A stretch of DNA of 32,000 bases from the NCBI RefSeq assembly GCF_000007985.2, contig NC_002939.5, positions 1,500,001-1,532,000 on the forward strand. Direction: 5' to 3'. This document shows positions 11,695-27,800 of this stretch, piece by piece. Under the pieces are notes generated by a model. That model was not told the DNA's origin. It searched no databases and saw nothing but the letters and a program-made list of their open reading frames with translations. A program made the position numbers and the translations under genes. The number at the start of each line of letters is the position of its first letter. Position 1 is the stretch's first letter. The DNA comes from Geobacter sulfurreducens PCA (lineage in GTDB: Bacteria > Desulfobacterota > Desulfuromonadia > Geobacterales > Geobacteraceae).

Positions 11695-12240
11695 ATGAAA
11701 AATCACCATCTCCAGGCAGCGATCGATGTGGAAACCACCGGCCTTTTCCCGGGATATGGCGACAGGGTCGTCGAAGTGGCTGCCGTCCTTGTGGACGAGG
11801 GACAAATCGTCTCGGAATTCAGCAGCCTGATCAGGGTAACAAAGGCGATCCCCCGCCACGTATCCATGATTCACGGCATCACCAACGACATGCTCGCCGA
11901 CCAGCCGCTGCCGGAAGAGGTCTACCCGGCTCTCGGAGATTTCATCGGCACGGCCCTGCTCGTGGCCCACAACGCCCGGTTCGATCTGGCATTCCTGCGG
12001 CACGAGTTCGGCCGGTTGGGATTGTCGCTGAACAGCCGGTCCGCCTGCACCCTGGAACTGGCCCGGCGCAGACTGCCGGAACTGACCGACCACCGCCTGG
12101 AAACCGTCTACCAGCACCTGTTCGGAGCCGTCCCCGAAGGGACCAGGTGCCACCGGGCGCTCGACGATGCGCGGCTCACGGCGCGGGTGTGGGGGGAGTT
12201 GGGGGGTGGGAAGGCTATGAAAAGTGGTGCTCTGCGGTAG
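11695..12240 (+). CDS. DEDDh 3'-5' exonuclease (DnaQ / DNA polymerase III epsilon-like), standalone, directly upstream of cas3
   Basis: 181-aa ORF. Exo I is AIDVETTG, Exo II is LVAHNARFDLAFL and Exo III is CHRALDDARLTA (H-x4-D). It is on the same strand as cas3, 80 nt upstream, with no terminator between. Confidence 0.9.
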   Translation: MKNHHLQAAIDVETTGLFPGYGDRVVEVAAVLVDEGQIVSEFSSLIRVTKAIPRHVSMIHGITNDMLADQPLPEEVYPALGDFIGTALLVAHNARFDLAFLRHEFGRLGLSLNSRSACTLELARRRLPELTDHRLETVYQHLFGAVPEGTRCHRALDDARLTARVWGELGGGKAMKSGALR

Positions 12241-12320
12241 TTGTGACTTGATTTGTCATAATGACATGATACTAACTGAACGCGATGATGGTGGCTTGCT
12301 TGGTTGCGTTGGAGGGGGAA

Positions 12321-14972
12321 ATGGAAAGTCTTACTGTCCCGGAGTATGTTTGGTATTGGGGGAAGGCTGAGAAGGATGCAGGCGGTTACCATCTCTTGCC
12401 GTACCATTGCCTCGACGTCGCGGCTGTGGCCGCAGTCTGGTGGGATGCGAGTCCGACTATCCGGCGCAGCTTCTCCAGTCATGCGAGTTGCTCCGAGGTT
12501 CAGAGCCGCGCCTGGCTGCTCTTCTTTGTCGCATTGCACGATTATGGCAAATTCGATCTGCGCTTCCAACTGAAGGTCAGGGAGGTGTGGGAGAAGCTGC
12601 ATCCGTTGGCAGGTCAGGGGGCAAGCCTGCCTTCGCAATTTGACATCAACCAATACCAGCACGGCGAGAGCGGCCTCTTCTGGTTCAAGAAAGATTTTTT
12701 CGCCTTAAACGGATGCGAGCCCACTGCTGATTCACTTTTTATCGACGATGAACCGCTCCAGTGGTCGAACTGGAAACCGTGGGTCGAAGCGGTGACGGGT
12801 CATCATGGCCATGTGAAACAGGCGGAATATGCAAGTGATGCGTCTCTTTCTGTTTCGGTCGACGGCAGATTCGCCGAGATCGATCAAACAGCCCGGAAAG
12901 AGTGGCTAAAAGCATTGGAGCAACTTTTCCTGCGACCGGCCGGCCTTTCCCTCGATAACGCTCCGCCTCCTCCATCGCCGCTACTGGCCGGATTCTGTTC
13001 CGTGTCAGACTGGCTGGCTTCCCGTTGCGACGACACCAATTTCTCCTTCCATCAGTCACCGCTGTCAATCTCGGACTATTTCACACAAAAATTCTCACAG
13101 GACGCTCCTGCCATCCTTGCTTTCTCCGGGCTTAACGGCACAGCCAAGAGCTACGGTGGCATATCCGACCTTCTCCCTGCCATCGCAACGCCTCGTCCAC
13201 TGCAAACCAAGGTCGATCAGTTACCGCTTCAGGACGGTTTGACCATCATTGAAGCACCGACCGGATCAGGCAAGACCGAAGCTGCCCTTGCCCATGCCTG
13301 GCGGTTGCTGGCTACCGGGCAAGCCGATTCGATCATCTTCGCGCTCCCCACGCAGGCCACTGCCAACGCCATGCTGGGCCGACTTGAATCGCTGGCTGAA
13401 CGTATTTTTACCAACAGCCCGAACCTCTTACTGGCCCATGGCAATGCCCGGTTCAACCGGACCTTCACGGACCTCAAGCGCAGAGGGTATAGCGACGTCG
13501 CCGACCCGGACGGCTGGACACAATGTGGGGAATGGCTGGCGGAGAGTCGCAAGCGGGTTTTTCTCGGACAGATCGGAGTCTGCACCATCGATCAGGTCCT
13601 GATTTCCGTATTGCCGGTCAAACATCGCTTCGTGCGTGGCCTTGGGGTGGGACGAAGCGTGCTGATCGTGGATGAGGTGCATGCCTACGACGCCTACATG
13701 TACGGCCTGCTTGAAGAAGTCTTGCGTCAGCAGCGCCAGTGCGGCGGCTCGGCCATCCTGTTATCGGCCACCCTGCCCGCAACGCTGAAGCAACAACTCG
13801 CAGCGGCCTGGGGAGACCAACGCACCGAATGCAACCCATCGGCAGCCTATCCGTTGTTGACTTGGCTCGGAAATGTGGATTTCCCGCCTATTTCGTTGGC
13901 TCGCCATGAAACGCCAAAACCGGTCACGGTTGAAATTGAAGCCCTGCGGCTTGAGGGAATGGAACCAGACCAGACCTTGCTCGCTCGCCTTGTCAGGGCT
14001 GCAGAGAGTGGCGCGCAGGTTGCGGTGATCTGCAATATGGTCAACGATGCCCAGAGAATCGCCGCTGCCCTGAGAGAGATGACATCCGCTCCGGTCGGCC
14101 TCTTTCATGCGCGTTACCGCTTCAAGGATCGGCAAATCAGAGAAAGCGAGGTCATCGACTGTTTCGGTCCCAGCGGCAAACGCGAACAGGGACGCATTCT
14201 GGTTGCCACTCAAGTTGTCGAGCAATCTCTCGATCTGGATTTCGATTGGCTGGTCACCCAGTTGTGCCCGGTCGACCTCCTCTTTCAGCGCATGGGGAGA
14301 CTGCATCGTCATCCACGCGCATCGCGACCTGCTGGGTATGACAAGCCAGTCTGCACTATCCTTCTCCCGTGCGAATGCAATTACGGCTACACCGGGAAAA
14401 TCTATGCGGATACCCGAGTGCTTTGGCGCACCGAACAGTTGTTGGCTTCCGCATCCGCCGGTCAGGTTACGTTCCCGGCTGCCTATCGGGAATGGATCGA
14501 GAGTGCCTATCAAGAGAAGTCTTGGGGTACAGAGCCAGATTTGGTGATTGCAGGGTTCGAGAAGTTCAAGGACAAAACCTGGAGTAAGACTTATAGCGCC
14601 AAGGAGATGATTCGGAAGGCATTTGAAATCACCCCCTTTTCGGATTCAGATGAAAATGTCACCGCCGTTACCCGTGACGATGAAATGGGGCTGACGGTGA
14701 TCCCGGTCATCGATTCGCCAAAGGGGCGGCGCTTCCTCGATGGTGGATTGCTTGGTGATCTGGATGAATTCCGCAGGGCAGAGGAGTTGGCTCTCAACAG
14801 TATCAATGTCCCTGCGCGCTGGAGTGGTTGGCTGAAAGCGTTGTGCGAAATTGACGACGAAAGACGATACTGGCTCACCATGACGGAACAAGGAGAGGGG
14901 TGCTATGTGCGTGAAGGGGAAAAGGTTGCTTTCAGGTATCACTGCGATACCGGACTGGAGAGGGTGAAATGA
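12321..14972 (+). CDS. cas3: Cas3 (HD nuclease plus SF2 helicase), type I-E
   Basis: The ORF frame starts at 12285. The ATG at 12321 follows a GGAGGGGG RBS. HD-domain motifs are LPYHCLDVAAV, ALHDYGKFD and GHHG. Helicase motif I is APTGSGKTEAA and motif II is DEVHAYD. The stop overlaps the cse1 start (ATGA). Confidence 0.95.
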   Translation: MESLTVPEYVWYWGKAEKDAGGYHLLPYHCLDVAAVAAVWWDASPTIRRSFSSHASCSEVQSRAWLLFFVALHDYGKFDLRFQLKVREVWEKLHPLAGQGASLPSQFDINQYQHGESGLFWFKKDFFALNGCEPTADSLFIDDEPLQWSNWKPWVEAVTGHHGHVKQAEYASDASLSVSVDGRFAEIDQTARKEWLKALEQLFLRPAGLSLDNAPPPPSPLLAGFCSVSDWLASRCDDTNFSFHQSPLSISDYFTQKFSQDAPAILAFSGLNGTAKSYGGISDLLPAIATPRPLQTKVDQLPLQDGLTIIEAPTGSGKTEAALAHAWRLLATGQADSIIFALPTQATANAMLGRLESLAERIFTNSPNLLLAHGNARFNRTFTDLKRRGYSDVADPDGWTQCGEWLAESRKRVFLGQIGVCTIDQVLISVLPVKHRFVRGLGVGRSVLIVDEVHAYDAYMYGLLEEVLRQQRQCGGSAILLSATLPATLKQQLAAAWGDQRTECNPSAAYPLLTWLGNVDFPPISLARHETPKPVTVEIEALRLEGMEPDQTLLARLVRAAESGAQVAVICNMVNDAQRIAAALREMTSAPVGLFHARYRFKDRQIRESEVIDCFGPSGKREQGRILVATQVVEQSLDLDFDWLVTQLCPVDLLFQRMGRLHRHPRASRPAGYDKPVCTILLPCECNYGYTGKIYADTRVLWRTEQLLASASAGQVTFPAAYREWIESAYQEKSWGTEPDLVIAGFEKFKDKTWSKTYSAKEMIRKAFEITPFSDSDENVTAVTRDDEMGLTVIPVIDSPKGRRFLDGGLLGDLDEFRRAEELALNSINVPARWSGWLKALCEIDDERRYWLTMTEQGEGCYVREGEKVAFRYHCDTGLERVK

Positions 14973-16489
14973 ATCTGCTGACCGAAGCATGGATACCTGT
15001 GCGGCCATTACCGGCCGGTGCGGCGTGCAAACTCACGTTGCGGCAACTGTTGTGCGAGGACGGCCGATGGGAGCTGTGCCTACCGCGCGACGACATGGAA
15101 CTGGCAGCCCTGCAATTGCTGATCTGCATGACGCAGGTTTTCTTTCCGCCGCAGAGCACTGCCGCGTTGAAACAGCGGATAGTTGCTCCGTTGTCGTTGG
15201 ATGAGTTTGAGAGCGGTTGTGCGCCCTATCGCGAGTGGTTCCGGCTCGACCATCCCGACTTTCCGTTCATGCAGGTGCGCAACGTCAGCGCCAAGGACCC
15301 GACTCCCATGGATAAGTTGCTGGCGGGACTGACGGGGGCGACAAACAGTTGCTTTGTGAACGAACCGGGGTTGGGCGCCTGCTTGTGCGGTGGCTGCGCG
15401 GCCATCGCCCTGTTCAACCAGTCATCCAATGCGCCGAGTTTTGGCGGCGGGTTCAAGGGGAGTCTGCGCGGTGGAGCGCCGGTGACAACTCTGGTGCAAG
15501 GTGAACATTTGAGGCAAACCGTCTGGCTCAATGTCTTGAGTGAAGAGCGTCTGACACAAATTATCCCGTGGCATCACGCAACACGCAGTCAGCAACCGAC
15601 CTGGGTTGCACCAATCAAGGCGGGCGAGACAATTCCATCACAAGCAATCGGCGTACTGCGCGGGCTCTTCTGGCAGCCGGGACATCTTGAACTGATGCCG
15701 CCGCAGGGAGAACAAGCTTGTATCTGTTGCGGTTTTGTCGAGAAACAGGTTTATGCGGGATTCAACAAGGCAAAGTTTAACTACACCATCGACGGACTCT
15801 GGCCCCACCCCCACGGCCCCCGTATCAGTTCGGTGAAGAAGGGAGAGCGGGAAGAAAAATTTGTTTCCTTCACCACCGCAGCCCCGGCTTGGACCCATTT
15901 GAGCCGGTTTGTCGTGCAGCGGCAAACGACCAACAGTAAAGAGGAAGGTCAGGAGCCGGCCGCGGTGGTGCGGCAGGCGCAGGGACTACTCAATAAGTTA
16001 CGCCTGGCAGTCGGTGGCTACCGCAACAATCAGGCATCGATTCTTGAGCGGCGCCACGAACTGATTTTTCTCAATGACGGCTGGAGCGGGCATACAGAGG
16101 TGGTGCATGCGCTGGTCGGACAGGCGGTCGGGTATCGCGATGCACTGAATAAGGCGCTTTTTGTATTTTCCACGGGCTTCAAAGAGATCAAGGGAGCCGG
16201 CGTTAAGGTTCATGAATTGGCTAAGGAGCAATTCTACCGCCGTAGTGAAGATACGGTTCTCGATACCTTGGCACGCATCGACTTTGAACAAGCAGCCCTG
16301 GCATTGCTGGCAATGGGGGATGGGCTCCACGGTATTGTCGTTGGGCTTTTTAATGAGTCGGTCGCACCCTACCGCAACGATCCGGAATTAATCCGTACCA
16401 CAGCCGTGGCGCGTAAGACACTGTACAAGCATTTAAATGCACTCAAACCACAACGGGATGGAAGGAGGGACGATGGAACGAACGCATGA
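14969..16489 (+). CDS. cas8e: Cas8e / Cse1 (CasA), Cascade large subunit
   Basis: 506-aa ORF. The N-terminus MNLLTEAWIPVR is typical of Cse1. Its position between cas3 and cse2 fits, and there is a 4-nt overlap with cas3. Confidence 0.9.
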   Translation: MNLLTEAWIPVRPLPAGAACKLTLRQLLCEDGRWELCLPRDDMELAALQLLICMTQVFFPPQSTAALKQRIVAPLSLDEFESGCAPYREWFRLDHPDFPFMQVRNVSAKDPTPMDKLLAGLTGATNSCFVNEPGLGACLCGGCAAIALFNQSSNAPSFGGGFKGSLRGGAPVTTLVQGEHLRQTVWLNVLSEERLTQIIPWHHATRSQQPTWVAPIKAGETIPSQAIGVLRGLFWQPGHLELMPPQGEQACICCGFVEKQVYAGFNKAKFNYTIDGLWPHPHGPRISSVKKGEREEKFVSFTTAAPAWTHLSRFVVQRQTTNSKEEGQEPAAVVRQAQGLLNKLRLAVGGYRNNQASILERRHELIFLNDGWSGHTEVVHALVGQAVGYRDALNKALFVFSTGFKEIKGAGVKVHELAKEQFYRRSEDTVLDTLARIDFEQAALALLAMGDGLHGIVVGLFNESVAPYRNDPELIRTTAVARKTLYKHLNALKPQRDGRRDDGTNA

Positions 16490-16916
16490 TTTCATGGGCC
16501 TCTATCAGGCATGGGAGCGGCTGGCTCCGGGCCCGAGAGCCGAGTTGCGCCGAGTCGAACGCCCGGACGATCTACTGGAAGTGCCGGCTTTTTATCGGCT
16601 CTTCAGCGGTCGGGGAACCACGGAGTGGGAAAAGGGAGCCTACCAGAGACTGATCTTCTGCCTGCCGTGCATCAAACACAGCGGCGAGAATATCAGCCTG
16701 GGCAGAGCGTTGGCCAAGGGGAGGGGCGTTGGCGAAAAACGTCTTTTTCAGGTTGTGCGCAGCAGCGAGCCCAACGACATGATCCAGTTACGCCGGATTC
16801 TGCGTATGGCCGAACCGACCGTGAACTGGGATCTGGCGGCGCGACAACTCTGGTACTGGAATGACCGGAGCAAGCGCGACCTGCTCGAAGATTACTTCCT
16901 CAATCACTCGAACTGA
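16473..16916 (+). CDS. cse2: Cas11 / Cse2 (CasB), Cascade small subunit
   Basis: The ATG at 16473 follows a GGAAGGAGGG RBS (the ORF track gives an earlier ATG at 16437). The product is ~147 aa, Arg-rich and helical. It sits in the canonical position between cse1 and cas7e. Confidence 0.85.
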   Translation: MERTHDFMGLYQAWERLAPGPRAELRRVERPDDLLEVPAFYRLFSGRGTTEWEKGAYQRLIFCLPCIKHSGENISLGRALAKGRGVGEKRLFQVVRSSEPNDMIQLRRILRMAEPTVNWDLAARQLWYWNDRSKRDLLEDYFLNHSN

Positions 16917-16943
16917 TTTCAAACATCTATAGGAGATAGTTAC

Positions 16944-18038
16944 ATGAAGAACTTCATCAACTTTCACATCCTGATTTCCCACAGTCCCTCCTGCCTTAAC
17001 CGCGACGATATGAACATGCAGAAATCTGCTGTTTTCGGTGGTGAGCGGCGGGTGCGCGTTTCCAGTCAAAGCCTCAAACGGGCCATCCGAAAGAGTGATT
17101 ACTATCGTCAGCACCTTGGCGAAGCGAGTGTGCGCACCAAGAAGTTGGACGAACTGATCGCGATCATAAATGATCGTCTGGCCGGACGCTACGATACCGA
17201 CCTCCTGAAGAAGACTGTTGGGCTGCTGGCCGGCAAGGAGTTAAGTGTCGAGGTTGCGACAGAAGGTGATGCCGTGGCGCCGTGGGCAATCGAAGAGGTG
17301 GCATGGTTCTGTGAGCAGGTCAAGAGGATGGTGGCGCAAGGACAGGACGAAAAAGCTCTGGGCAAATTGTTGAAGAATGAAACGGCTGCCATGCGGCAGG
17401 CTCTGGCATCCGGTGTTGATATTGCACTTTCCGGCCGCATGGCGACGTCAGGTCTCATGAGTGAACTCGGCAAGGTCGATGGTGCCTTGGCCGTTGCCCA
17501 TGTCTTGACCACCCACAGCGTTGATGCGGATATCGACTGGTTCACTGCCGTGGATGACTTGCAGGAACTGGGCTCCGGTCATCTCGATACGCAGGAATTT
17601 TCCAGCGGGGTCTTTTATCGTTATGCCAGCCTCAACGTGAAGCAGTTGCAGGAAAACCTGGGCAATGCCCCGCGCGAGAAGGCACTGGAGATCGGCGCTC
17701 ATCTGCTTCACATGCTGGCAACGATTGTCCCTTCAGCCAAACAGCAGAGCTTCGCAGCTCACAACCTGGCCGACCTTGCCCTGGTTTCCTTTTCCGATAT
17801 CCCGGTATCGCTCGCAAATGCATTCGAAAAACCTGTCCGTAGCGTCAATGGCAGCGGCTTCAAAGAGCCTTCCATTGCTGAACTGCATAACTACTGGCAG
17901 CAGATCCATACAGGTTACGGCCTTTCCGAGCGGTGCGGCGAGTTCATCCTCGGTCAGAGTAGCGTCCCTGAAGGGATCACCCGGAAGAGTACTATTGAAG
18001 AACTCAAAACCTGGGTGATGAACAACGGAGAGGGGTAA
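16944..18038 (+). CDS. cas7: Cas7e (Cse4 / CasC), Cascade backbone subunit
   Basis: The N-terminus MKNFINFHILISHSPSCLNRDDMNMQKSAVFGGERRVRVSSQSLKRAIR is nearly identical to what I recall for E. coli CasC. Confidence 0.97.
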   Translation: MKNFINFHILISHSPSCLNRDDMNMQKSAVFGGERRVRVSSQSLKRAIRKSDYYRQHLGEASVRTKKLDELIAIINDRLAGRYDTDLLKKTVGLLAGKELSVEVATEGDAVAPWAIEEVAWFCEQVKRMVAQGQDEKALGKLLKNETAAMRQALASGVDIALSGRMATSGLMSELGKVDGALAVAHVLTTHSVDADIDWFTAVDDLQELGSGHLDTQEFSSGVFYRYASLNVKQLQENLGNAPREKALEIGAHLLHMLATIVPSAKQQSFAAHNLADLALVSFSDIPVSLANAFEKPVRSVNGSGFKEPSIAELHNYWQQIHTGYGLSERCGEFILGQSSVPEGITRKSTIEELKTWVMNNGEG

Positions 18039-18040
18039 CC

Positions 18041-18721
18041 ATGCGTGATTATCTGATCCTCAAGCTGCAAGGACCCATGCAGTCATGGGGGGAGCATACT
18101 TTCGAGGGAAAGCGACCGTCCGGCAATTTCCCCACACGTAGCGCCCTCCTCGGCCTGCTCGGGGCCTGCCTGGGCATCAGGCGAAACGAGGCCGGTCGCC
18201 TGCAACAACTGGCAGACAGCGTTGCCTTTGCCGTTCGTAAGGAAGAACGCTTCCGAATTAGGCACGACGGCCGGAAAACTTCCCTGCCGATCATCAAGGC
18301 AACCGATTACCACACGGTGAGGGATGCGCGGGAGGATTATTTCGGCCTGAAAAGCCATGAGACCATTCAGACTTGGCGTGAATACCTGTTCGATGCTACC
18401 TACACCGTGGCCGTCTGGAATACCGACGTTGCGACGATATCGCTGGTTGAACTGGAACAGGCCGTAAAGTCGCCCCACTTCACCCCCTATCTTGGTCGGC
18501 GCAGTTGTCCATTGTCCCGTCCGCTGTTCGAGATGAGCTTTTCTGCAGCGAATGCCTGTGACGCTTTGCGCATGATTCCTTCGGATGGTGGGGTGATCTA
18601 CAGTGAGGAGCCGGGCGAAACACGAACCATACGGCTTCGTGACGTGCCATTGGTGCGCCAGCCACGCCAGTTTGCCAGCCGCAACGTCCATGTCTATGGA
18701 GGGGTCGATGTATCTGAGTAA
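18041..18721 (+). CDS. cas5: Cas5e (CasD)
   Basis: MRDYLILKLQGPMQSWGEHTFEGKRPSGNFPTRSALLGLLGACLGI closely parallels E. coli CasD. Confidence 0.95.
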   Translation: MRDYLILKLQGPMQSWGEHTFEGKRPSGNFPTRSALLGLLGACLGIRRNEAGRLQQLADSVAFAVRKEERFRIRHDGRKTSLPIIKATDYHTVRDAREDYFGLKSHETIQTWREYLFDATYTVAVWNTDVATISLVELEQAVKSPHFTPYLGRRSCPLSRPLFEMSFSAANACDALRMIPSDGGVIYSEEPGETRTIRLRDVPLVRQPRQFASRNVHVYGGVDVSE

Positions 18722-19316
18722 AGTCTTGATCAACGGGACAGCCTGTCGCAATCCCTACGAGATTCATCGAGTGTTGTGGAAGCTCTTTCCCGAAGATGCC
18801 GATGCCGAGCGTGATTTTCTCTTTCGTGTTGAGCGATCCGGTCAACAGAGCGTGGAGGTGTTGTTGCAGTCCCGACGTGAACCTACTATGGCTGCATCTC
18901 GTGAAGTACTCTTGATGGGAAGCAAACCCTACCTTCTCAGCCTCCAGCAGGATCAGCAGCTGCGCTTTATGCTAGTCGCCAACCCGATAAAGACGATCAA
19001 CGACGAAAGCGCGAGACTAAATAGTGCCAATGAAATAAAGAAGTGCCGCGTTCCGCTGATTCGTGAGGAGGATCTGCGTGCATGGCTGAAACGGAAACTT
19101 GAGGGCGTGGCCGTCATTGAGGCGGTCGAGGTAGAAAAGCGGCCGGCTATGAACTTTCGTAAGGCCAGGGAAAAGCGGGTCGGTAAGGTACAGGCGGTTA
19201 GTTTTCATGGTGTGTTGTCAGTGACGGACCCCGTCGGGTTGATATCCCTGATCAATACCGGCATCGGCCCTGCCAAGGCCTTTGGCTGCGGTTTGCTATC
19301 GCTGGCTAGGACATAA
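18708..19316 (+). CDS. cas6e: Cas6e (Cse3 / CasE) crRNA endoribonuclease
   Basis: The ATG at 18708 gives MYLSKVLINGTACRNPYEIHRVLWKLFPEDADAERDFLFRVE, matching the E. coli CasE N-terminus (MYLSKV...FP...RDFLF.VE). The C-terminal GIGPAKAFGCGLLSL motif is present. It overlaps cas5e by 14 nt. Confidence 0.95.
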   Translation: MYLSKVLINGTACRNPYEIHRVLWKLFPEDADAERDFLFRVERSGQQSVEVLLQSRREPTMAASREVLLMGSKPYLLSLQQDQQLRFMLVANPIKTINDESARLNSANEIKKCRVPLIREEDLRAWLKRKLEGVAVIEAVEVEKRPAMNFRKAREKRVGKVQAVSFHGVLSVTDPVGLISLINTGIGPAKAFGCGLLSLART

Positions 19317-19328
19317 ATTCTCCCCCCG

Positions 19329-19349
19329 CCCCCCTTTCATAAAGGGGGG
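19329..19349 (+). terminator. Hairpin 13 nt after the cas6e stop (9-bp stem, 3-nt loop)
   Basis: CCCCCCTTT-CAT-AAAGGGGGG. Only a weak T-rich tract follows (GAGCCTTTTC), so this may be an attenuator or processing site rather than a full terminator. Confidence 0.4.
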
Positions 19350-19379
19350 AAAGGAGCCTTTTCGGCAGGTGTGATAATA

Positions 19380-19486
19380 GGCAACAGGACTATCGGTACA
19401 AATTAACCTTAATATTAATAATACTGTTGAATAAATTAACAAATATATTAATATTTGTAGTAATAAAATTAATTTAGAGGTTAATT
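19380..19486 (+). promoter_or_regulatory. AT-rich island (about 20% GC by eye, in a high-GC window) with nested inverted repeats; candidate promoter/operator of the HTH-Fic cassette
   Basis: AATTAACCT (19401-19409) is the exact inverse complement of AGGTTAATT (19478-19486, which abuts the ATG). An extra AATTAAC lies at 19434-19440. Palindromes are TTAATATTAA (19409-19418) and TATTAATA (19446-19453). A possible -35 TTGAAT (19427-19432) and -10 TAATAT (19449-19454) are 16 nt apart. Confidence 0.5.
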
Positions 19487-19957
19487 ATGCTGCCAAGCCG
19501 AAAACGTCTCGTTCTTGAACAACTGGGGAAAACTCTCTCACGTTTCGCCGGACTACAAGCAGTATCTCCCCCGGCAAGGGGGTGGATACGAGCCATCCGG
19601 GAAGCGTTGGGGATGTCTGGCGTACAGTTTGCCGCCCGTTTGGGGGTGACGCCGCCACGGGTGACGGCGCTGGAACGGGATGAACTGTCCGGGGCCGTTA
19701 CCATGAAGACCATGCGCCAGGCTGCGGAGGCTCTGGATTGCGTGTTTCTCTATGCTCTGGTGCCGCGCACGAGCCTTGAGGAAACCATTAGGAGGCAGGC
19801 GGAGGCCGTGGCGCGTGAGCGCCTGTTGCGGGTGTCCCACACCATGATGCTGGAAAGCCAGCAGCTCTCGGAAGAGGAGATGAAACAGGCGCTGGATGCT
19901 GCGGTGGAGGAACTGGTGCGGACTATGCCGAAAGATTTGTGGAGCAAAGCCCCATGA
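19487..19957 (+). CDS. XRE-type helix-turn-helix protein (antitoxin/regulator-like partner of the Fic protein)
   Basis: 156-aa ORF. The HTH region is GWIRAIREALGMSGVQFAARLGVTPPRVTALERDE, followed by a helical acidic C-terminal half. The stop overlaps the start of the next gene (ATGA at 19954-19957). The architecture matches what I recall as the TIGRFAMs 'mobile mystery protein A' family; this is unverified here. Confidence 0.8.
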   Translation: MLPSRKRLVLEQLGKTLSRFAGLQAVSPPARGWIRAIREALGMSGVQFAARLGVTPPRVTALERDELSGAVTMKTMRQAAEALDCVFLYALVPRTSLEETIRRQAEAVARERLLRVSHTMMLESQQLSEEEMKQALDAAVEELVRTMPKDLWSKAP

Positions 19958-20538
19958 ACTTCGAGTACCCCGACGGGGCAACTCCTCTTGATTCAGATGA
20001 GGCTGAAGGGCTTCTCCTGACGCATATTACCTCACGCGGCGAGCTGGATCGCTGGGAGCAGGAAAATATCGCGGAAGGGGAGGCCTGGGCTTTCGGACGC
20101 AGGCAGAAGAATATCCTGAGCGAAGCCTTTATTCGTCGTCTGCATAAGCGGATGTTCGGCCATGTATGGCGTTGGGCCGGAGAGTTCCGCAGAAGCGACA
20201 AGAATATCGGCGTCACGTGGTGGCAGGTGCCGATTGAACTACGCAAACTGTGCGACGATGTTGTCGCCTGGATAGCGTTCGGCACCTACCCGCCCGACGA
20301 GATTGCCGTGCGGTTCCATCACCGGCTGGTGGCCATACATCCGTTTGCCAACGGCAACGGCCGGCATGCCCGGACCATGACCGACCTGTTGCTCGTCCAG
20401 GCTCTGCAGCGTCCTCGATTTACCTGGGGAAGCGGCAATCTCGTCAGTGTCGGCGACTGCCGGCGCTACTATATCGAAGCGCTTCGCGCCGCCGACCGGC
20501 ATGATTATCAACTTCTGCTGGAATTTGTGCGGATGTGA
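19954..20538 (+). CDS. Fic-domain protein (AMPylase/toxin-like)
   Basis: I prefer the ATG at 19954 (ATGA overlap); the ORF track gives GTG at 19939. A canonical Fic motif HPFANGNGRHAR (HxFx(D/E)GNGRxxR) lies at nt 20338-20373. An (S/T)xxxE(G/N)-like SDEAEG lies at nt 19993-20010. It resembles what I recall as 'mobile mystery protein B'; this is unverified. Confidence 0.88.
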   Translation: MNFEYPDGATPLDSDEAEGLLLTHITSRGELDRWEQENIAEGEAWAFGRRQKNILSEAFIRRLHKRMFGHVWRWAGEFRRSDKNIGVTWWQVPIELRKLCDDVVAWIAFGTYPPDEIAVRFHHRLVAIHPFANGNGRHARTMTDLLLVQALQRPRFTWGSGNLVSVGDCRRYYIEALRAADRHDYQLLLEFVRM

Positions 20539-20565
20539 TCCTGATTTGCCAAGGAGGTGTCAGCA

Positions 20566-21772
<1,207 letters not shown>

Positions 21773-21846
21773 CGAAACCTGTGAGAAAAGTTGGTAGGTT
21801 TGAGTTGTTTGGAAATTGCATGTGAATTCAATGATGTAGAGGAAGT
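21773..21846 (+). promoter_or_regulatory. CRISPR leader (74 bp between the cas2 stop and the first repeat)
   Basis: The segment is relatively AT-rich (…GTTGTTTGGAAATTGCATGTGAATTCAATGATGTAGAGGAAGT) and directly abuts repeat 1. Repeat orientation matches the E. coli I-E repeat (…CCCCGC…GCGGGGAT.AACCG), so transcription runs on the + strand. Confidence 0.7.
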
Positions 21847-24800
21847 GTGTTCCCCGCATGCGCGGGGATGAACCGATCGCCCTGGAGACCACCGCCCGTG
21901 ACGGCGAGTGTTCCCCGCATGCGCGGGGATGAACCGAGCCGGCGTTCAAACGCGACACTGGCGGCCGAGTGTTCCCCGCATGCGCGGGGATGAACCGGCC
22001 TGTTCCCCCTCGTCGGCCAGGTTGTTGTGGTGTTCCCCGCATGCGCGGGGATGAACCGTCGTCGAAGACATGGACCAGGCCGACGCCGTAGTGTTCCCCG
22101 CATGCGCGGGGATGAACCGTGCTCTCCGGGCTCTCCGGTCTGGTGAATTTCGTGTTCCCCGCATGCGCGGGGATGAACCGGTTTCCGGTCGCAGCATGGA
22201 GCCGATGATCGTGTGTTCCCCGCATGCGCGGGGATGAACCGCTCACCCAATGACCTGGTACTGCCCGGTATATGTGTTCCCCGCATGCGCGGGGATGAAC
22301 CGCTTCTGTCGCTCACGCTCAATGCGGTCCGTACGTGTTCCCCGCATGCGCGGGGATGAACCGCAACGGATCGACTACTGGGACTGCACTGTTTAGTGTT
22401 CCCCGCATGCGCGGGGATGAACCGATTACGCGCATGCCAGCTCCAACCATGCTCGAGTGTTCCCCGCATGCGCGGGGATGAACCGGGGGTAAAGGGGGGC
22501 ATGATGCCCCCCTCTGCTGTGTTCCCCGCATGCGCGGGGATGAACCGGCCGTTACCGGTAACCCCGGTCGTTATGATGGGTGTTCCCCGCATGCGCGGGG
22601 ATGAACCGACAGTAGCAACGATAGCGAGAGAAAGGAAAATGTGTTCCCCGCATGCGCGGGGATGAACCGGTGCTCTCGGTTCCGGTAAGACATACTATGC
22701 TGTGTTCCCCGCATGCGCGGGGATGAACCGATATTTTTGGTAATCAGCAGGGTTTTTAGTCGGTGTTCCCCGCATGCGCGGGGATGAACCGACGATACAG
22801 CAGACGATACAGGAGCAAGGACAGTGTTCCCCGCATGCGCGGGGATGAACCGTACCAGGAATGTGTTTAGAACGCTCGAGAGCCGTGTTCCCCGCATGCG
22901 CGGGGATGAACCGTTCAATGGGTTGATTTGATGGATTCCAAGCTTGTGTTCCCCGCATGCGCGGGGATGAACCGTGCCGGGGGGGTGGCGCCGGCGGTGG
23001 TGTCTTGTGTTCCCCGCATGCGCGGGGATGAACCGGTACCGGGCCGCTCCTCCATGACCAACGCCAAGTGTTCCCCGCATGCGCGGGGATGAACCGGTCG
23101 GCAGCCGGCCCTGGGTGCTCTCCTCGGGGTGTTCCCCGCATGCGCGGGGATGAACCGTAGACCTCTGCAGCGCCTTTGCCACTGCAGCAGTGTTCCCCGC
23201 ATGCGCGGGGATGAACCGTCGGCAGCGGTAAATCCGTCATGCGCCGCAAAGTGTTCCCCGCATGCGCGGGGATGAACCGCCCCTTGTCGCTGCCGGACTT
23301 TTTCTTCAGGTGTGTTCCCCGCATGCGCGGGGATGAACCGTCAGCCGGGCCGCCGACCCCAGCGCCCGGGAGGTGTTCCCCGCATGCGCGGGGATGAACC
23401 GGCCCGGTCTGGCGGGCCGACCAGATCATCACCGTGTTCCCCGCATGCGCGGGGATGAACCGAACCAGTCGGTGGCGTCGGTCTGGAAGGGGTTGTGTTC
23501 CCCGCATGCGCGGGGATGAACCGTTCAACCCATATATGGGACTATGCGGCTAGGCGTGTTCCCCGCATGCGCGGGGATGAACCGGAGGCGTAAGCATGGC
23601 AACAGAGACTCAGAACGTGTTCCCCGCATGCGCGGGGATGAACCGAGCTAGGCGACATCTCGTCTTTTGTCCGTGCCGTGTTCCCCGCATGCGCGGGGAT
23701 GAACCGCACGACTCACCGCCTGGCTGGCGGCCGACGAGGTGTTCCCCGCATGCGCGGGGATGAACCGTATTCCCAGGTTAGCGGTTGCAGCCACAGCATG
23801 TGTTCCCCGCATGCGCGGGGATGAACCGCCATCAGCAACGCCGCAGACCGCGCCGGCATCGTGTTCCCCGCATGCGCGGGGATGAACCGGCTGGTTCATG
23901 GGGCGTTCACCTCCGCAGGCCGTGTTCCCCGCATGCGCGGGGATGAACCGAGGGCCGGGCCATGATCCAGGCCGACCTCGACGTGTTCCCCGCATGCGCG
24001 GGGATGAACCGGTTTTTCTGGAGGAGGTGCCCCCCTGGCATGCGTGTTCCCCGCATGCGCGGGGATGAACCGGCTGTGTCTGCTGTGATAATCTTGAGAG
24101 TGATGTGTTCCCCGCATGCGCGGGGATGAACCGGGCGAGGTTAGGCGGAGGCTGGAGAGCATCGCGTGTTCCCCGCATGCGCGGGGATGAACCGACGAGC
24201 CACTGAAACTCAGCCCCTGGCCCAGAGTGTTCCCCGCATGCGCGGGGATGAACCGGACCACGGCTACCTCAAGAGCGTGTTGAAATCGTGTTCCCCGCAT
24301 GCGCGGGGATGAACCGCTGCCCGCCTGGGGCTTGATCTCCAGCAGGCCGTGTTCCCCGCATGCGCGGGGATGAACCGCTGCGGGAACAGCAGGCCGAACG
24401 CCTGGGCCAGTGTTCCCCGCATGCGCGGGGATGAACCGACCCCGGCAACCTGACGTGCGGCGTTTGGGTCGTGTTCCCCGCATGCGCGGGGATGAACCGC
24501 TCGCCAGGGGGCAATCTTTGCTCCTGCCACGGTGTTCCCCGCATGCGCGGGGATGAACCGATGCAGATCCTCGTCGCCTACGATACCGCCGTGTGTTCCC
24601 CGCATGCGCGGGGATGAACCGCTCGCGGTCGGAGCTGCCGGTGAGGCGGCGCCGTGTTCCCCGCATGCGCGGGGATGAACCGTGCTCTGGCCCGACACGC
24701 CTCCTGAGCAGCGCGTGTTCCCCGCATGCGCGGGGATGAACCGCCCTCCCCATCCCTGGTCGTAACCCGAAGATTGTGTTCCCCGCATGCGCGGGGATGA

Positions 24801-27800
24801 ACCGCCCAGCGGATCGTCAACGACGAGCGGCACCTCGTGTTCCCCGCATGCGCGGGGATGAACCGGTGCGCGAGGGTATTTGCGGTCAAGGGCATCGGTG
24901 TTCCCCGCATGCGCGGGGATGAACCGACCACCGCCCCCATCACCTGGACCGGCGTCAAGTGTTCCCCGCATGCGCGGGGATGAACCGAAATTAACCACAC
25001 CGGACCGCTGTTTCTCAACGTGTTCCCCGCATGCGCGGGGATGAACCGATCCTGTCGAGGCCCTGCAACTCCTGGGAGAGGTGTTCCCCGCATGCGCGGG
25101 GATGAACCGGCGAATGCCGTTCGCCCGACCTACGGTCGGACGTGTTCCCCGCATGCGCGGGGATGAACCGGGGTCTGGTCCGGTGGATGTCTATCTGTGC
25201 AGGTGTTCCCCGCATGCGCGGGGATGAACCGATGCATTCGGGGAAAGCCCTTATCGTGACATTGTGTTCCCCGCATGCGCGGGGATGAACCGCAGATGAA
25301 AGGAACCTGAAAATGGCACTCAGAGTGTTCCCCGCATGCGCGGGGATGAACCGCGACACAGGATCGCGTCGCCAGTCTTGATCTCGTGTTCCCCGCATGC
25401 GCGGGGATGAACCGGGGTATAACCCGCCTATAGACGCCGACTACGCGTGTTCCCCGCATGCGCGGGGATGAACCGATACACAAGAATGGCCGGATCGAGA
25501 TGCCGAAGTGTTCCCCGCATGCGCGGGGATGAACCGTCAATATTTTAGTTTTGCTGGTCAGGCGTTTCGTGTTCCCCGCATGCGCGGGGATGAACCGCTC
25601 GTCAGCGCCATGCTCAAAGAGGCGGCCGGGTGTTCCCCGCATGCGCGGGGATGAACCGCTGGATATCACCGAGGGGGGCGCCGTTGTCCTGTGTTCCCCG
25701 CATGCGCGGGGATGAACCGTGTCCACCCCGTAATTTCCGAGACTTTTTTAGGTGTTCCCCGCATGCGCGGGGATGAACCGAATGCACCGTCCGCAATTAC
25801 CGCTTTAGCTATGTGTTCCCCGCATGCGCGGGGATGAACCGCCTTTGTAATAGTCGAAGCCGAACTCGACGCCGTGTTCCCCGCATGCGCGGGGATGAAC
25901 CGGGTGATGTACGCCCCACCATCAATTGAGACCTGTGTTCCCCGCATGCGCGGGGATGAACCAGCCGAGCACGACGAAGAGAAACTCCGCAAGTGGTGTT
26001 CCCCGCATGCGCGGGGATGAACCGATATGGGGAACTAAGTGGAACGCCTGTGAGTCGTGTTCCCCGCATGCGCGGGGATGAACCGCGGTATCAAATGAGG
26101 CCTTCCCCTCGTCAGGGGTGTTCCCCGCATGCGCGGGGATGAACCGTATAATGAAGAAGGGAGAATTGAACAATGGGTGTGTTCCCCGCATGCGCGGGGA
26201 TGAACCGAATCGCTTTGAGGTTCGTTGCTGGAACGAGGAGTGTTCCCCGCATGCGCGGGGATGAACCGATGAGGGCTGAAAACCCGGCAATCGAACCCTG
26301 GTGTTCCCCGCATGCGCGGGGATGAACCGGTCATTTCTGTTCTCCAGCCGCTATCGCCAGCGTGTTCCCCGCATGCGCGGGGATGAACCGGCGGCCTGGA
26401 GGCGGTCGACTCCTTCACGGCCGTGTTCCCCGCATGCGCGGGGATGAACCGATGTGCGGCCCCTTCTCCTTCGGTGACTACTCGTGTTCCCCGCATGCGC
26501 GGGGATGAACCGTTTATCGTTGCGAACCGACAGAGGGTGAAATAGTGTTCCCCGCATGCGCGGGGATGAACCGGTGAGTATGCAGCAATGAACATTTCTC
26601 TCCTTGTGTTCCCCGCATGCGCGGGGATGAACCCAGATGTGTGCTGAATTCAAGAACCCGCAAGGCGTGTTCCCCGCATGCGCGGGGATGAACCGGACAA
26701 AATCAGCGACATTACCACCGTTGGCGAGTGTTCCCCGCATGCGCGGGGATGAACCGGTATTCCCTATGGCCGGAAACACCATCATCGTGTGTTCCCCGCA
26801 TGCGCGGGGATGAACCGATCGAGGATCTGCTCGTCGGTGATGGTGCCATGTGTTCCCCGCATGCGCGGGGATGAACCGTAACCATGCCCGGATCACTATC
26901 GAGTACACCGGTGTTCCCCGCATGCGCGGGGATGAACCGCGCACGAATGTCCTCGGCCCTCCATGCCGTACGTGTTCCCCGCATGCGCGGGGATGAACCG
27001 CCGTTACGCCGACCGCCGAGTTTCGGCAAAATGTGTTCCCCGCATGCGCGGGGATGAACCGCACGGAAAAGAGCCCGACTCCGTGAACCAGGCGTGTTCC
27101 CCGCATGCGCGGGGATGAACCGCAGGATGGCGTCGAAAAATACTATCGCCGGTCGTGTTCCCCGCATGCGCGGGGATGAACCGGAGTACGACTGGGTACT
27201 CATCGACGAGGCGCAGTGTTCCCCGCATGCGCGGGGATGAACCGAGCGGGTAGATGTCCTCCCGGTACTGGGATGCGTGTTCCCCGCATGCGCGGGGATG
27301 AACCGGTGCCAAACAAGCCGTCAGTGCTTTTGGCGGGCGTGTTCCCCGCATGCGCGGGGATGAACCGCTTGAGCGACCGCTTCAGAATCGGGATGAGCCG
27401 TGTTCCCCGCATGCGCGGGGATGAACCGGCGTTGCCATCTGGGTCCTGATGCTCGACCGCGTGTTCCCCGCATGCGCGGGGATGAACCGGTTTGCCGATA
27501 CGTGCCGTCCCTGCGCCGACAGTGTTCCCCGCATGCGCGGGGATGAACCGTACCCTCACTAAAGGGCAACAGCACGATTCAAGTGTTCCCCGCATGCGCG
27601 GGGATGAACCGCGCTGGCTCACCCTGGCGCAGGGTCTCCGACAGTGTTCCCCGCATGCGCGGGGATGAACCGATGAGGGATGCTTCCGAAGGTAAGATTG
27701 AGGCGTGTTCCCCGCATGCGCGGGGATGAACCGAGGTTGGGTGTGGCTTCCTACGATTTTGAGCAGTGTTCCCCGCATGCGCGGGGATGAACCGACTGTA

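Follow-up and report, generated by a model that had tools for sequence, protein, structure and literature searches.

A putative Fic toxin-antitoxin cassette between cas6e and cas1 of the type I-E CRISPR-Cas operon of Geobacter sulfurreducens

In the type I-E locus of Geobacter sulfurreducens, the cas6e stop codon ends at position 19316 and the cas1 ATG begins at 20566, leaving an insert of 1249 bp (19317-20565) that contains a two-gene cassette, mysA plus mysB, joined by an ATGA overlap. We consider it probable that the insert is a self-contained, autoregulated Fic toxin-antitoxin cassette (~19397-20560), namely an addiction or abortive-infection-type module that hitch-hikes, is not easily lost and is most likely not a component of the CRISPR system. 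All positions refer to the window, a stretch of 32,000 nucleotides from strain PCA (contig NC_002939.5, positions 1,500,001 to 1,532,000).

The presence of this cassette at the cas6e/cas1 junction has been known since 2013, when Zhang, Doak and Ye described a Fic plus TIGR02612 antitoxin pair in the cas locus of G. sulfurreducens (NAR 2013, PMC3936711). They presented it as the first reported case of a toxin together with an antitoxin in a cas locus, and suggested that immunity might be coupled to dormancy or suicide. The pair is GSU1390/GSU1391, as placed through the gene numbering in PMC2923632. Since annotation models and the literature already cover both genes and the place where they lie, the finding as first written adds nothing new. 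What is added here beyond the 2013 report is the swapping of modules at the population level, the recurrently filled position in front of cas1 and an analysis of the protein motifs. In the literature on MysAB pairs we found annotation-level mentions only, and no experiments on toxicity, neutralisation or DNA binding.

Architecture of the insert

The open reading frames of the window confirm the boundaries of the insert that were given in the first-pass annotation, which had also read it as an HTH plus Fic pair of the 'mobile mystery protein A/B' type with an ATGA overlap. The profile matches bear out this identification. MysA matches TIGR02612 with 227.1 bits (cutoff 122.6) and HTH_3 (PF01381, E = 3e-9), with the HTH at residues 34-85, and MysB matches TIGR02613 with 328.7 bits (cutoff 124.4) and Fic (PF02661, E = 3.7e-14). 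Both TIGR profiles are covered over their whole length. The flanking genes are identified by matches to Cas6e (TIGR01907, E = 5.8e-50), Cas1e (TIGR03638, 388 bits) and Cas2e (TIGR01873), and the Cas1 protein of the window is 100% identical to that of G. sulfurreducens P0241. The Cas3_HD, DEAD and Cas3-like_C_2 domains of cas3 were called in a near-identical locus (L001). The coordinates of all features are collected in Table 1.

The cassette begins with its own AT-rich putative promoter/operator, and its right edge is placed at ~20560, where homology to three cassettes in a type I-C context (L015, L016 and L018) stops. An in-frame GTG at 20557 lies 5' of the cas1 ATG. Because only 27 nt without a terminator separate mysB from cas1, the cassette probably contributes to the transcription of cas1-cas2. 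Antisense and alternative-frame open reading frames of the cassette match no Pfam family, and the cassette region matches no Rfam family. In the array downstream, spacer 100 has a 16-nt exact match to cas5 of the window itself, and no better protospacer for it was found in other Cascade variants.

Table 1. Features of the type I-E locus and its insert (positions in the window)
Feature	Position	Strand	Remarks
cas3	12285..14972	+	ORF; opens the interference module; alternative start 12321
Cascade genes as a group	14969..19316	+	ORFs; Pfam gene calls in locus L001
cse1	14969-16489	+	ORF
cse2	16473-16916	+	ORF
cas7	16944-18038	+	ORF
cas5	18041-18721	+	ORF
cas6e	18708-19316	+	ORF; TIGR01907
Hairpin CCCCCCTTT-CAT-AAAGGGGGG	19329..19349	+	9-bp stem; after cas6e; followed by CCTTTTC
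Cassette control region	19397..19486	+	AT-rich, about 20% GC; putative promoter/operator
Repeated half-site AATTAACC	19401-19408	+	Control region
Putative -35 TTGAAT	19427-19432	+	Control region
Repeated half-site ATTAAC	19435-19440	+	Control region
Putative -10 TAATAT	19449-19454	+	Control region
Repeated half-site GGTTAATT	19479-19486	+	Control region; overlaps the mysA Shine-Dalgarno site
mysA	19487..19957	+	XRE-type HTH, 156 aa; putative antitoxin/autorepressor
mysB	19954..20538	+	Fic fold, 194 aa; putative toxin; start inside the ATGA overlap
mysB-cas1 spacer	20539..20565	+	27 nt; Shine-Dalgarno AAGGAGG at 20550-20556
cas1	20566-21486	+	Adaptation gene
cas2	21467-21772	+	Adaptation gene
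Leader	21773-21846	+	
CRISPR array	21847-30540	+	143 repeats, 142 spacers

Putative promoter and operator of the cassette

Repeated or inverted half-sites upstream of mysA coincide in part with the putative -35 and -10 elements and with the Shine-Dalgarno site. A strict consensus scan of the control region found no sigma-70 promoter, and the promoter call is based on an 8-of-12 consensus match together with conservation. The region is kept in divergent Geobacter cassettes of just 86% overall identity. Family-wide, the regions upstream of mysA are AT-rich and carry three to five lineage-specific repeats, the last of which lies over the Shine-Dalgarno site (45 of the 77 extracted regions were inspected). 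MysA would repress the AT-rich promoter of the cassette via the repeated half-sites, with the last one placed over the ribosome-binding site. With its HTH domain and with repeats at its own putative promoter, to which it presumably binds, MysA has the layout of a type II antitoxin.

The hairpin that follows cas6e is unique in the window, where 0 are expected by chance. In G. benzoatilyticus, hairpins like it occur three times around an inserted DUF559 gene. This element is possibly a weak terminator or a repeat element. A terminator scan gave no call for it, and its fold is no better than that of shuffled sequence.

Inheritance with the adaptation genes

The cassette is fixed in G. sulfurreducens and is inherited as a block with cas1, cas2, the leader and the array, while cas3 and the Cascade genes are exchanged by recombination. 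Across strains with four Cascade types, the segment from the mysA control region to the leader (19393-21846) shows 98-100% identity per 100-nt window, except for three short patches of 88-96%. On the 5' side of the cassette, at least four Cascade modules have been swapped, the versions in other G. sulfurreducens strains being only 25-35% identical, and homology to strains with other Cascade types stops at 12206, just 5' of cas3. An identical Cas2e is encoded on 23 contigs, and mysAB is present in all six of the distinct contexts listed for it. CRISPR adaptation still works at the cassette-bearing loci, as is evident from arrays of 90-143 spacers of which almost none are common between strains.

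At one locus (L015), the cassette was kept after cas1e, cas2e and the leader had been deleted and a type I-C system had arrived. Thus, mysAB outlived a turnover from type I-E to type I-C. A toxin-antitoxin element within a type I cas locus has a precedent in CreTA of haloarchaeal type I-B systems, which is also a precedent for addiction to cas genes. However, CreTA is RNA-based and depends on Cascade via a crRNA-like guide, whereas both parts of mysAB are proteins, and mysAB has survived the loss of neighbouring cas genes. No repeat-like sequence was found outside the array with up to 9 mismatches allowed, and the best match of any spacer to the cassette is 15 nt with 1 mismatch. We therefore reject a CreTA-like guard layout; the first-pass annotation had cited CreTA as the precedent for a toxin-antitoxin module that safeguards cas genes.

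Occupants of the position upstream of cas1

There are 65 dereplicated loci in the Cas1e lineage of the window (Cas1e 81-90% identical), and a gene is present just 5' of cas1 in 49 of them (about 75%). The known occupants are Bro-N, class II Fic, RhuM, DUF1016, HicAB and mysAB, and a Fic-family gene is found in 10 of the 65 clusters, in three architectures. A toxin-antitoxin pair has also been reported at the same position in P. carbinolicus (PMC2923632). Most occupants match the PADLOC families PDC-S13, S04, S05 or S02, or SoFic; specifically, Bro-N corresponds to PDC-S13, RhuM and ORF6N to PDC-S05, and DUF1016 to PDC-S02. Because about three quarters of these positions are filled by Fic and other "embedded" genes, the location of mysAB is not a one-off random landing.

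The other occupants, which are Bro-N, class II Fic, RhuM, DUF1016 and HicAB, belong to a guild of genes that is also known from within other defence operons. Such "guilt-by-embedding" genes include the families PDC-S04, S05, S02 and S13, whose definition goes back to genes found inside BREX, DISARM and type I restriction-modification systems (Payne et al. 2024 bioRxiv). The systems in which this study looked for embedded genes were Hma, BREX, DISARM and type I restriction-modification, and CRISPR-Cas is absent from its main text. Like the embedded PDC genes, and like PrrC of type I restriction-modification, mysAB is nested between the modules of a multi-gene defence system, but its host is a type I-E CRISPR-Cas operon and not one of the four systems just named. 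MysB matches the PDC-S04 model PDLC04839 over residues 23-193 (E = 4.9e-21, for a model that has no curated cutoff), and mysAB thus combines a match to this model with nesting between cas6e and cas1. A PDC-S04 gene that was tested in its native host in a published study gave no phage defence.

The wider family was surveyed at species level, in 80 loci whose flanks total 894 kb. In this set there are 0 CRISPR arrays and 0 matches to the Cas queries of types I-E and I-C that were run, the immediate neighbours of mysAB are heterogeneous, and no conserved neighbour genes were found. Linkage to cas is confined to the G. sulfurreducens/benzoatilyticus group plus one further locus (L188), and the non-random linkage across unrelated lineages that would mark mysAB as a CRISPR-associated accessory was not found. 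MysB is encoded on 254 plasmids (Agrobacterium, Rhizobium, Coxiella and others), in 0 phage records and on only 17 of 2.9 million viral contigs; these last two counts rule out a phage origin. Plasmid carriage, near-absence from viruses and heterogeneous neighbours together suggest that mysAB behaves as a mobile, addiction-type element. The first-pass annotation had held that a lack of enrichment near cas or other defence loci would reveal a random landing. For mysAB itself, enrichment near cas is indeed lacking in the species-level loci, whereas the position in front of cas1 is filled too regularly in the Cas1e lineage for a one-off random landing.

The first-pass annotation had offered three possible roles, namely addiction, a backup by abortive infection and control of adaptation. 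One possibility is that the Fic pair and the other genes 5' of cas1 are CRISPR-specific accessories that work with the adaptation module, perhaps by causing growth arrest or a DNA topology that favours spacer capture, or by serving as a backup when Cascade is blocked, with cas1-cas2 placed under control of a toxin-antitoxin style. The high occupancy argues for this role, and so does the observation that occupants keep with cas1, and not with Cascade, when modules recombine. In addition, Bro-N, RhuM, DUF1016 and Fic363 each end in a stop codon that overlaps the start of cas1, a Bro-N gene (74-79% identical) is also found directly 5' of a type I-C cas1, and a second, diverged mysAB (75% identical) adjoins cas1e at L188. 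Three Fic architectures at the exact same position, and many occupants that are translationally coupled to cas1, hint at more than passive hitch-hiking. However, mysAB has no link to cas in any of the 80 other species and is often carried by plasmids, the occupants are mutually unrelated in function, and genes of this guild are likewise found inside restriction-modification, BREX and DISARM systems. Moreover, mysAB persisted past the deletion of the adjoining cas1e-cas2e, 16 of the 65 related loci have no insert, and no crRNA-like element or spacer links Cascade to the cassette. Overall, we regard a CRISPR-specific role as unlikely.

A further-reaching proposal is that the site directly before cas1, both in the I-E adaptation module and in one or more type I-C modules, is a dedicated accessory position. 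Its interchangeable and often Cas1-coupled occupants, among them a DUF1016 nuclease, would act with Cas1-Cas2, for instance by arresting growth or altering DNA topology so as to aid spacer capture, or as a backup on failed interference, and MysAB would be the version regulated as a toxin-antitoxin system, with cas1-cas2 under antitoxin-controlled transcription. We consider this proposal to be quite unlikely. The cassette occupies a recurrently filled site 5' of cas1 in a widely transferred lineage of I-E adaptation modules, and under the reading that we favour it would hitch-hike there as an addiction-type or abortive-infection-type module.

Candidate antitoxin and toxin

In each of the 80 species-level loci, and in all Geobacter loci, MysA lies directly 5' of MysB, and the distances between the two genes range from -20 to +13 nt, mostly with an overlap or a gap of a few nucleotides. 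No solved structure was found for the MysA family, with no match better than E = 0.49. In the predicted structure, the HTH resembles those of the HigA and HipB antitoxins and of controller proteins from restriction-modification systems. Near the C terminus there is a near-invariant motif, [S/T]MxLExQ, at residues 119-125 (19841-19861), which among 81 family members is conserved at S/T119 (74/81), M120 (81/81), L122 (81/81), E123 (80/81) and Q125 (81/81). The sequence TMMLES (19841-19858), which had been singled out in the first-pass annotation as a near-inhibitory motif, falls within this stretch, the best conserved motif in the C-terminal part of the protein. Residue 124 is Ala in 28 of the 81 members, Asn in 17, Asp in 16 and Lys in 8; in this window it is Ser. 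The alignment supports a resemblance to the inhibitory (S/T)xxxE(G/N) motif of Fic antitoxins, and a monomer model puts the motif at a helix end with moderate confidence. MysA would neutralise MysB through this motif, and a likely mode, by analogy with class I Fic antitoxins, is that Glu123 is put into the nucleotide-binding site of MysB.

The model of MysB has a Fic fold, with FICD as the top match and further matches to VbhT, CdFic and NmFic. When matched for size, its best structural neighbours are VbhT (TM 0.64/0.63, rmsd 3.9 A) and the Fic-1/AntF toxin-antitoxin complex. No solved structure was found for the MysB family, the nearest being FICD (E = 3e-9), and Doc-specific models do not match the protein. 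MysB would therefore seem, from its predicted fold, to be a small Fic-fold enzyme in the size class of the VbhT/FicT toxins. Its Fic motif, HPFANGNGRHAR (20338-20373), carries Asn133 where HxFx(D/E)GNGRxxR has Asp or Glu, and Asn is found there in every one of the 81 family members. The rest of the motif is retained, and the sequence departs from the canonical AMPylating motif HxFx(D/E)GN(G/K)RxxR. The class II Fic proteins that occupy the same position in other loci have a canonical HPFxDGNGR. The first-pass description of the catalytic motif as intact is thus not supported, and the replacement of a metal-binding Asp/Glu by Asn may indicate a chemistry other than AMPylation.

A possible inhibitory role had also been suggested for SDEAEG in MysB (19993-20010). 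This sequence is not conserved in the family (Ser14 in 3/81, Glu18 in 37/81) and does not align with SxxIEG of class II Fic proteins, to which the profile alignment of MysB begins only at residue 39. We therefore reject SDEAEG as a class II-type inhibitory helix family-wide; it might be a relic in this particular MysB.

Two types of Fic module are among the known systems closest to MysAB. The class I Fic toxin-antitoxin modules VbhT-VbhA and FicT-FicA (PDB 3shg, 3zc7) were reportedly described by Engel et al. in 2012 and by Harms et al. in 2015. As in MysAB, a small Fic-fold protein is encoded 3' of a separate partner gene and overlaps it, the (S/T)xxxE motif of the VbhA/FicA-type partner is also present in MysA, and VbhT is the best size-matched neighbour of the MysB model. 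In contrast, VbhA and FicA are ~60 aa long and have no DNA-binding domain, whereas MysA has 156 aa, an XRE HTH and probable operator sites. The last residue of the motif is G or N in class I antitoxins, but A, N, D or K in MysA (Ser in the window), and the Fic motif of MysB has Asn in place of the Asp/Glu of the VbhT/FicT type. Doc-Phd also pairs a Fic-fold toxin that has a non-canonical motif with an antitoxin that autoregulates its operon, as MysA presumably does. The Doc motif allows Asn at the Asp position. However, Doc is an EF-Tu kinase with the motif HxFx(D/N)(A/G)NKR, whereas MysB keeps GNGR, and Phd, unlike MysA, is not an HTH-XRE protein.

Perhaps MysB is not a toxin but a regulatory enzyme that reversibly modifies or de-modifies a host target, with MysA as its partner and as a transcription factor. 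The model for this arrangement is Fic-1/AntF, a gyrase deAMPylase, and the target would be tuned without the cell being killed or arrested. The invariant Asn is consistent with such a role, as are the appearance of the Fic-1/AntF deAMPylase complex among the structural matches, the fact that the top fold matches to FICD are also deAMPylases (7b7z, a deAMPylation complex), and the long vertical retention of the pair in the G. sulfurreducens group. On the other side, a patchy distribution, carriage on plasmids and a strict, overlapping two-gene architecture are typical of toxin-antitoxin modules, and the sequence reveals no target. A purely regulatory enzyme is rather improbable in our judgement.

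It is highly improbable that the cassette is an inert, decaying insertion kept by its position between selected genes, for although the cas6e-cas1 intergenic region tolerates other insertions (an IS element at locus L104, a DUF559 gene in G. benzoatilyticus) and remnants of other occupants are found in related loci, both frames are intact in every strain examined, dN/dS values of 0.08-0.10 for mysB and 0.14-0.23 for mysA (0.08-0.23 for the cassette, over dS of up to 0.5) indicate purifying selection, and the catalytic and antitoxin motifs and the control region are conserved.

Implications

The MysAB family is large, with at least 591 species-level genomes and the 254 plasmids, including those of Agrobacterium and Coxiella, and it stands out for the unusual invariant Asn in its Fic motif. 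In G. sulfurreducens, the adaptation module and its upstream occupant form one inherited unit, which bears on how CRISPR loci evolve under pressure from anti-CRISPRs. The locus is a natural system, in a genetically tractable Geobacter, for learning why toxin-antitoxin and "embedded" genes gather at the module junctions of defence operons. The same system lets one ask whether embedded genes stabilise, regulate or back up the defence system that hosts them.

Identity of the mysAB pair

The insert between cas6e and cas1 of the type I-E locus encodes an XRE-type HTH protein (MysA) and a Fic protein (MysB), and the two genes overlap at an ATGA sequence. The first-pass annotation had reported this pair inside the cas operon, and all of its coordinates are correct. 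Profile searches confirm both identities, since MysA scores 227 bits against the curated model TIGR02612 and MysB 329 bits against TIGR02613, both far over cutoff, with further matches to HTH_3 and Fic. The TIGR02613 description reportedly refers to the G. sulfurreducens PCA CRISPR region by name. The other reading frames of the cassette match no Pfam family, and the region matches no Rfam family. Genes for FeoB, a DtxR-family regulator and an RNase T-like exonuclease precede cas3, and this chromosome segment is of the G. sulfurreducens kind (MysB is 99% and Cas1 100% identical to proteins of that species).

Features of the type I-E locus in the window and of related loci (L-numbers are comparison loci)
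Feature	Position	Remarks
cas3, cse1, cse2, cas7, cas5, cas6e	12285-19316	
Insert between cas6e and cas1	19317-20565	1249 bp
mysA	19487-19957	TIGR02612, HTH_3
mysB	19954-20538	TIGR02613, Fic
cas1	ATG 20566	then cas2
Leader		74 nt, after cas2
CRISPR array	21847-30540	143 repeats
Unstab_antitox gene	L003:1463-1720, L004:1414-1671, L005:1575-1832, L009:30-290 (minus strand)	just upstream of cas3
DUF559 (Vsr-like endonuclease) gene insertion	L011:8843-9390	G. benzoatilyticus
DDE transposase insertion	L104:2640-3986	G. sulfurreducens subsp. ethanolicus
Bro-N gene examples	L108:2063-2896, L166:4132-4962, L182, L185, L187, L193 and others; L015:983-1819	

The presence of the pair in this cas locus is already known and was published in 2013. 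Zhang, Doak and Ye (NAR 2013, PMC3936711) counted ten Fic genes located in type I cas loci, a RhuM domain being part of some, and noted that the G. sulfurreducens gene adjoins an antitoxin similar to TIGR02612, a pair they offered as an example of immunity coupled to dormancy or suicide. Aklujkar and Lovley (2010, PMC2923632) numbered the flanking genes GSU1384-1389 and GSU1392-1393, and therefore mysA and mysB are GSU1390 and GSU1391. They also described Pcar_0962/0963 of Pelobacter carbinolicus, located at the corresponding position, as a putative toxin and antitoxin.

Among 81 aligned family members, the Fic motif of MysB is H-P-F-x-N-G-N-G-R-H-A-R, wherein Asn133 is invariant, whereas AMPylating Fic enzymes have Asp or Glu there. 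Structure prediction gives MysB a Fic fold (mean pLDDT 78), and among proteins of comparable size it is best matched by the class I toxin VbhT and by the toxin-antitoxin complex Fic-1/AntF. A search for solved structures of the MysB family found none. The sequence SDEAEG near the N terminus had been proposed as an inhibitory motif of MysB, but it is not a family feature, given that Ser14 is present in only 3 and Glu18 in 37 of the 81 members. Gly19 is present in 67. Nor does SDEAEG align with the class II motif SxxIEG, as the profile alignment to class II Fic proteins begins only at residue 39.

The HTH domain of MysA (residues 34-85) resembles HigA, HipB and restriction-modification controller proteins in the structure model. 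Its most conserved C-terminal motif is [S/T]119-M-x-L-E123-x-Q125, in which M, L, E and Q are each found in 80-81 of 81 sequences. The segment TMMLES, previously read as a near match to the inhibitory motif (S/T)xxxE(G/N) of Fic antitoxins, lies inside it. The first five positions fit, but the sixth is A, N, D or K. On this sequence evidence, the inhibitory glutamate is most likely supplied in trans by MysA, and MysB would be inhibited through Glu123.

Control region

In the 90 bp that precede mysA, GC content is about 20%, compared with about 58% for the surrounding genome region. These 90 bp carry repeated half-sites AATTAACC ... GGTTAATT, the last of which overlaps the ribosome-binding site. 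This architecture recurs upstream of mysA, with lineage-specific half-site sequences, in the 45 listed of 77 family upstream regions extracted, and the control region is kept even where the overall identity of Geobacter cassettes is no more than 86%. A plausible mysA promoter is TTGAAT-N16-TAATAT, which falls below the threshold of the consensus scan. We infer that the pair functions as an autoregulated toxin-antitoxin module. Because the gap between mysB and cas1 is only 27 nucleotides, contains a ribosome-binding site and yielded no terminator in a terminator scan, the mysA promoter may contribute to transcription of cas1-cas2.

Inheritance with the adaptation module

The mysAB genes lie in front of cas1 in all six distinct contexts listed for 23 contigs with identical Cas2e. 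There are at least four different cas3-Cascade modules among G. sulfurreducens strains and metagenomes (loci L001-L010 and L100-L105), with proteins 25-35% identical and one module having the order cas6e-cas7-cas5. All four precede the same mysAB-cas1-cas2-leader block, which is 98-100% identical per 100-nt window save for three short patches of 88-96% and is followed by the array. In the other Cascade variants, homology to the window stops at 12206, where the common flank is the end of the RNase T-like gene, and restarts at 19257, 19323 or 19393, varying with the Cascade variant. The cassette therefore lies at the recombination boundary and moves together with the adaptation module, and these limits indicate that the interference module (window 12206-19393) has been replaced repeatedly by recombination. 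Both mysA and mysB are under purifying selection (dN/dS 0.08-0.23, dS up to 0.5).

The spacer between cas6e and mysA takes extra insertions: G. benzoatilyticus has a DUF559 gene there, and subsp. ethanolicus has an IS element. Three CCCCC-TTT-NNN-AAA-GGGGG hairpins flank that DUF559 gene and are similar to a hairpin at window 19329-19349. An addiction-module antitoxin gene (Unstab_antitox, TIGR02574; 85-86 amino acids) is located just upstream of cas3 in loci with other Cascades and is lacking there in the window-type locus. Near the 3' end of cas1, a 100-nt patch (21282-21381) shows just 92% identity to each of the eight loci compared, against 98-100% in the rest of the block, and looks like a local allele or recombination patch.

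A related lineage carries mysAB in a type I-C context (L015, L016 and L018), with MysB 92% identical to that of the window. Homology to the window is confined to 19397-20560, and this stretch is thus the cassette unit. In the L015-type lineage, the cassette comes after a type I-C cas4, Bro-N, cas1 and cas2 set and type I-C repeats. In L015 (3330-3430 and 4573-4700), it sits just 3' of these repeats, and on its other side come a single I-E repeat (4596-4624) and a degenerate type I-C repeat in turn. This junction is consistent with the loss of cas1e-cas2e-leader by deletion between the 9-nt near-repeats AGGAGGTGT (window 20551-20559) and AGGAAGTGT (window 21838-21846), and thus the cassette outlived its I-E neighbours.

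Arrays of the window, L001-L004, L011, L101 and L104 hold 90-143 spacers, and strains whose flanking DNA is 97-98% identical have at most one or two in common. Since the arrays differ almost wholly, adaptation is active despite the insert. Some between-strain spacer matches are offset by 2-4 nucleotides, suggesting that the strains captured them independently from one invader. Fourteen window repeats carry the variant GTGTTCCCCGCACATGCGGGGATGAACCG. Spacer 100 (27917-27948) matches 16 nt of the window's own cas5 exactly (18398-18413; 21 of 32 identities overall), and a foreign cas5 homologue may have been its source. The other Cascade variants compared contained no better protospacer.

Distribution of mysAB and of genes upstream of cas1

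In a species-level genome collection there are at least 591 relatives. Among the best 80, MysA is always encoded upstream of MysB, and their 894 kb of flanks contain no CRISPR array and no match to I-E or type I-C Cas queries. Immediate neighbours are heterogeneous, including some defence genes (BrxC, restriction-modification, PD-Lambda-2, SoFic), integrases, conjugation genes and housekeeping genes. MysB is carried by 254 plasmids and only 17 viral contigs, and none was found in phage records. The lack of cas linkage, mixed neighbours and plasmid carriage together give the profile of a mobile toxin-antitoxin module rather than of a cas accessory gene. A CreTA-like guard design is excluded.

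Linkage to cas genes is not general for mysAB, but in the window's Cas1e clade the position in front of cas1 is recurrently occupied. This clade is highly conserved: MAGs assigned to Syntrophales, Smithella, Dissulfurispiraceae and the archaeal Methanoregulaceae carry the Cas1e at 86-93% identity (relatives P0241-P0360), which suggests recent wide horizontal spread of the adaptation module. Among 80 metagenomic loci of the clade, an insert separates the last Cascade gene from cas1 in 52 of the 72 that are informative, and in 49 of 65 clusters after dereplication at 97% cas1 DNA identity. The cas1 start codon is overlapped by most of the Bro-N, RhuM, DUF1016 and Fic363 genes. Cascade modules differ between these loci, but each occupant remains with cas1-cas2, just as it does in Geobacter.

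Genes between the last Cascade gene and cas1 in the Cas1e clade (a cluster that has two occupants appears in both rows)
Occupant	Size	Clusters	PADLOC match
Bro-N protein	about 275 aa	21	PDC-S13
Class II Fic proteins (canonical HPFxDGNGR, own SxxIEG motif)	269-363 aa	9	SoFic / PDC-S04
Diverged mysAB (L188)	pair	1	PDC-S04 (match of the window's MysB)
RhuM	about 370 aa	6	PDC-S05
DUF1016/YhcG nuclease	421 aa	5	PDC-S02
Four-helix-bundle protein	166-168 aa	3	none
ORF6N	190-230 aa	2	PDC-S05
HicAB	pair	1 (plus L106)	
Unassigned ORFs	various	7	none in two ORFs scanned

The commonest gene directly upstream of cas1 encodes a Bro-N domain protein (PDC-S13, E = 1e-123; 21 of 65 clusters), and the stop codon of this gene usually falls within an overlap with the start of cas1. 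The L015 copy, 74-79% identical, lies between cas4 and type I-C cas1. Remnants of the Bro-N 3' end persist beside cas1 where other genes fill the position (L117, L167 and L170). We found no paper describing a link of Bro-N to cas1.

These PDC families were defined by Payne et al. (2024) from genes nested inside BREX, DISARM and type I restriction-modification systems, and CRISPR-Cas is not mentioned in the main text of that paper. One PDC-S04 gene gave no defence in a native-host test.

The interpretation in the first-pass annotation is supported in part. It had suggested that the cassette may stabilize or back up the CRISPR-Cas locus or regulate adaptation. Fic genes do recur at exactly this place, coupled to cas1, but unrelated defence systems harbour embedded genes of the same guild, and mysAB is retained where its cas neighbours are gone, leaving a CRISPR-specific role unlikely. 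We consider it rather more probable that mysAB is a hitch-hiking, hard-to-lose Fic toxin-antitoxin module without such a role. What is added here is the comparative picture around mysAB, which is of moderate interest and can be tested directly in G. sulfurreducens.
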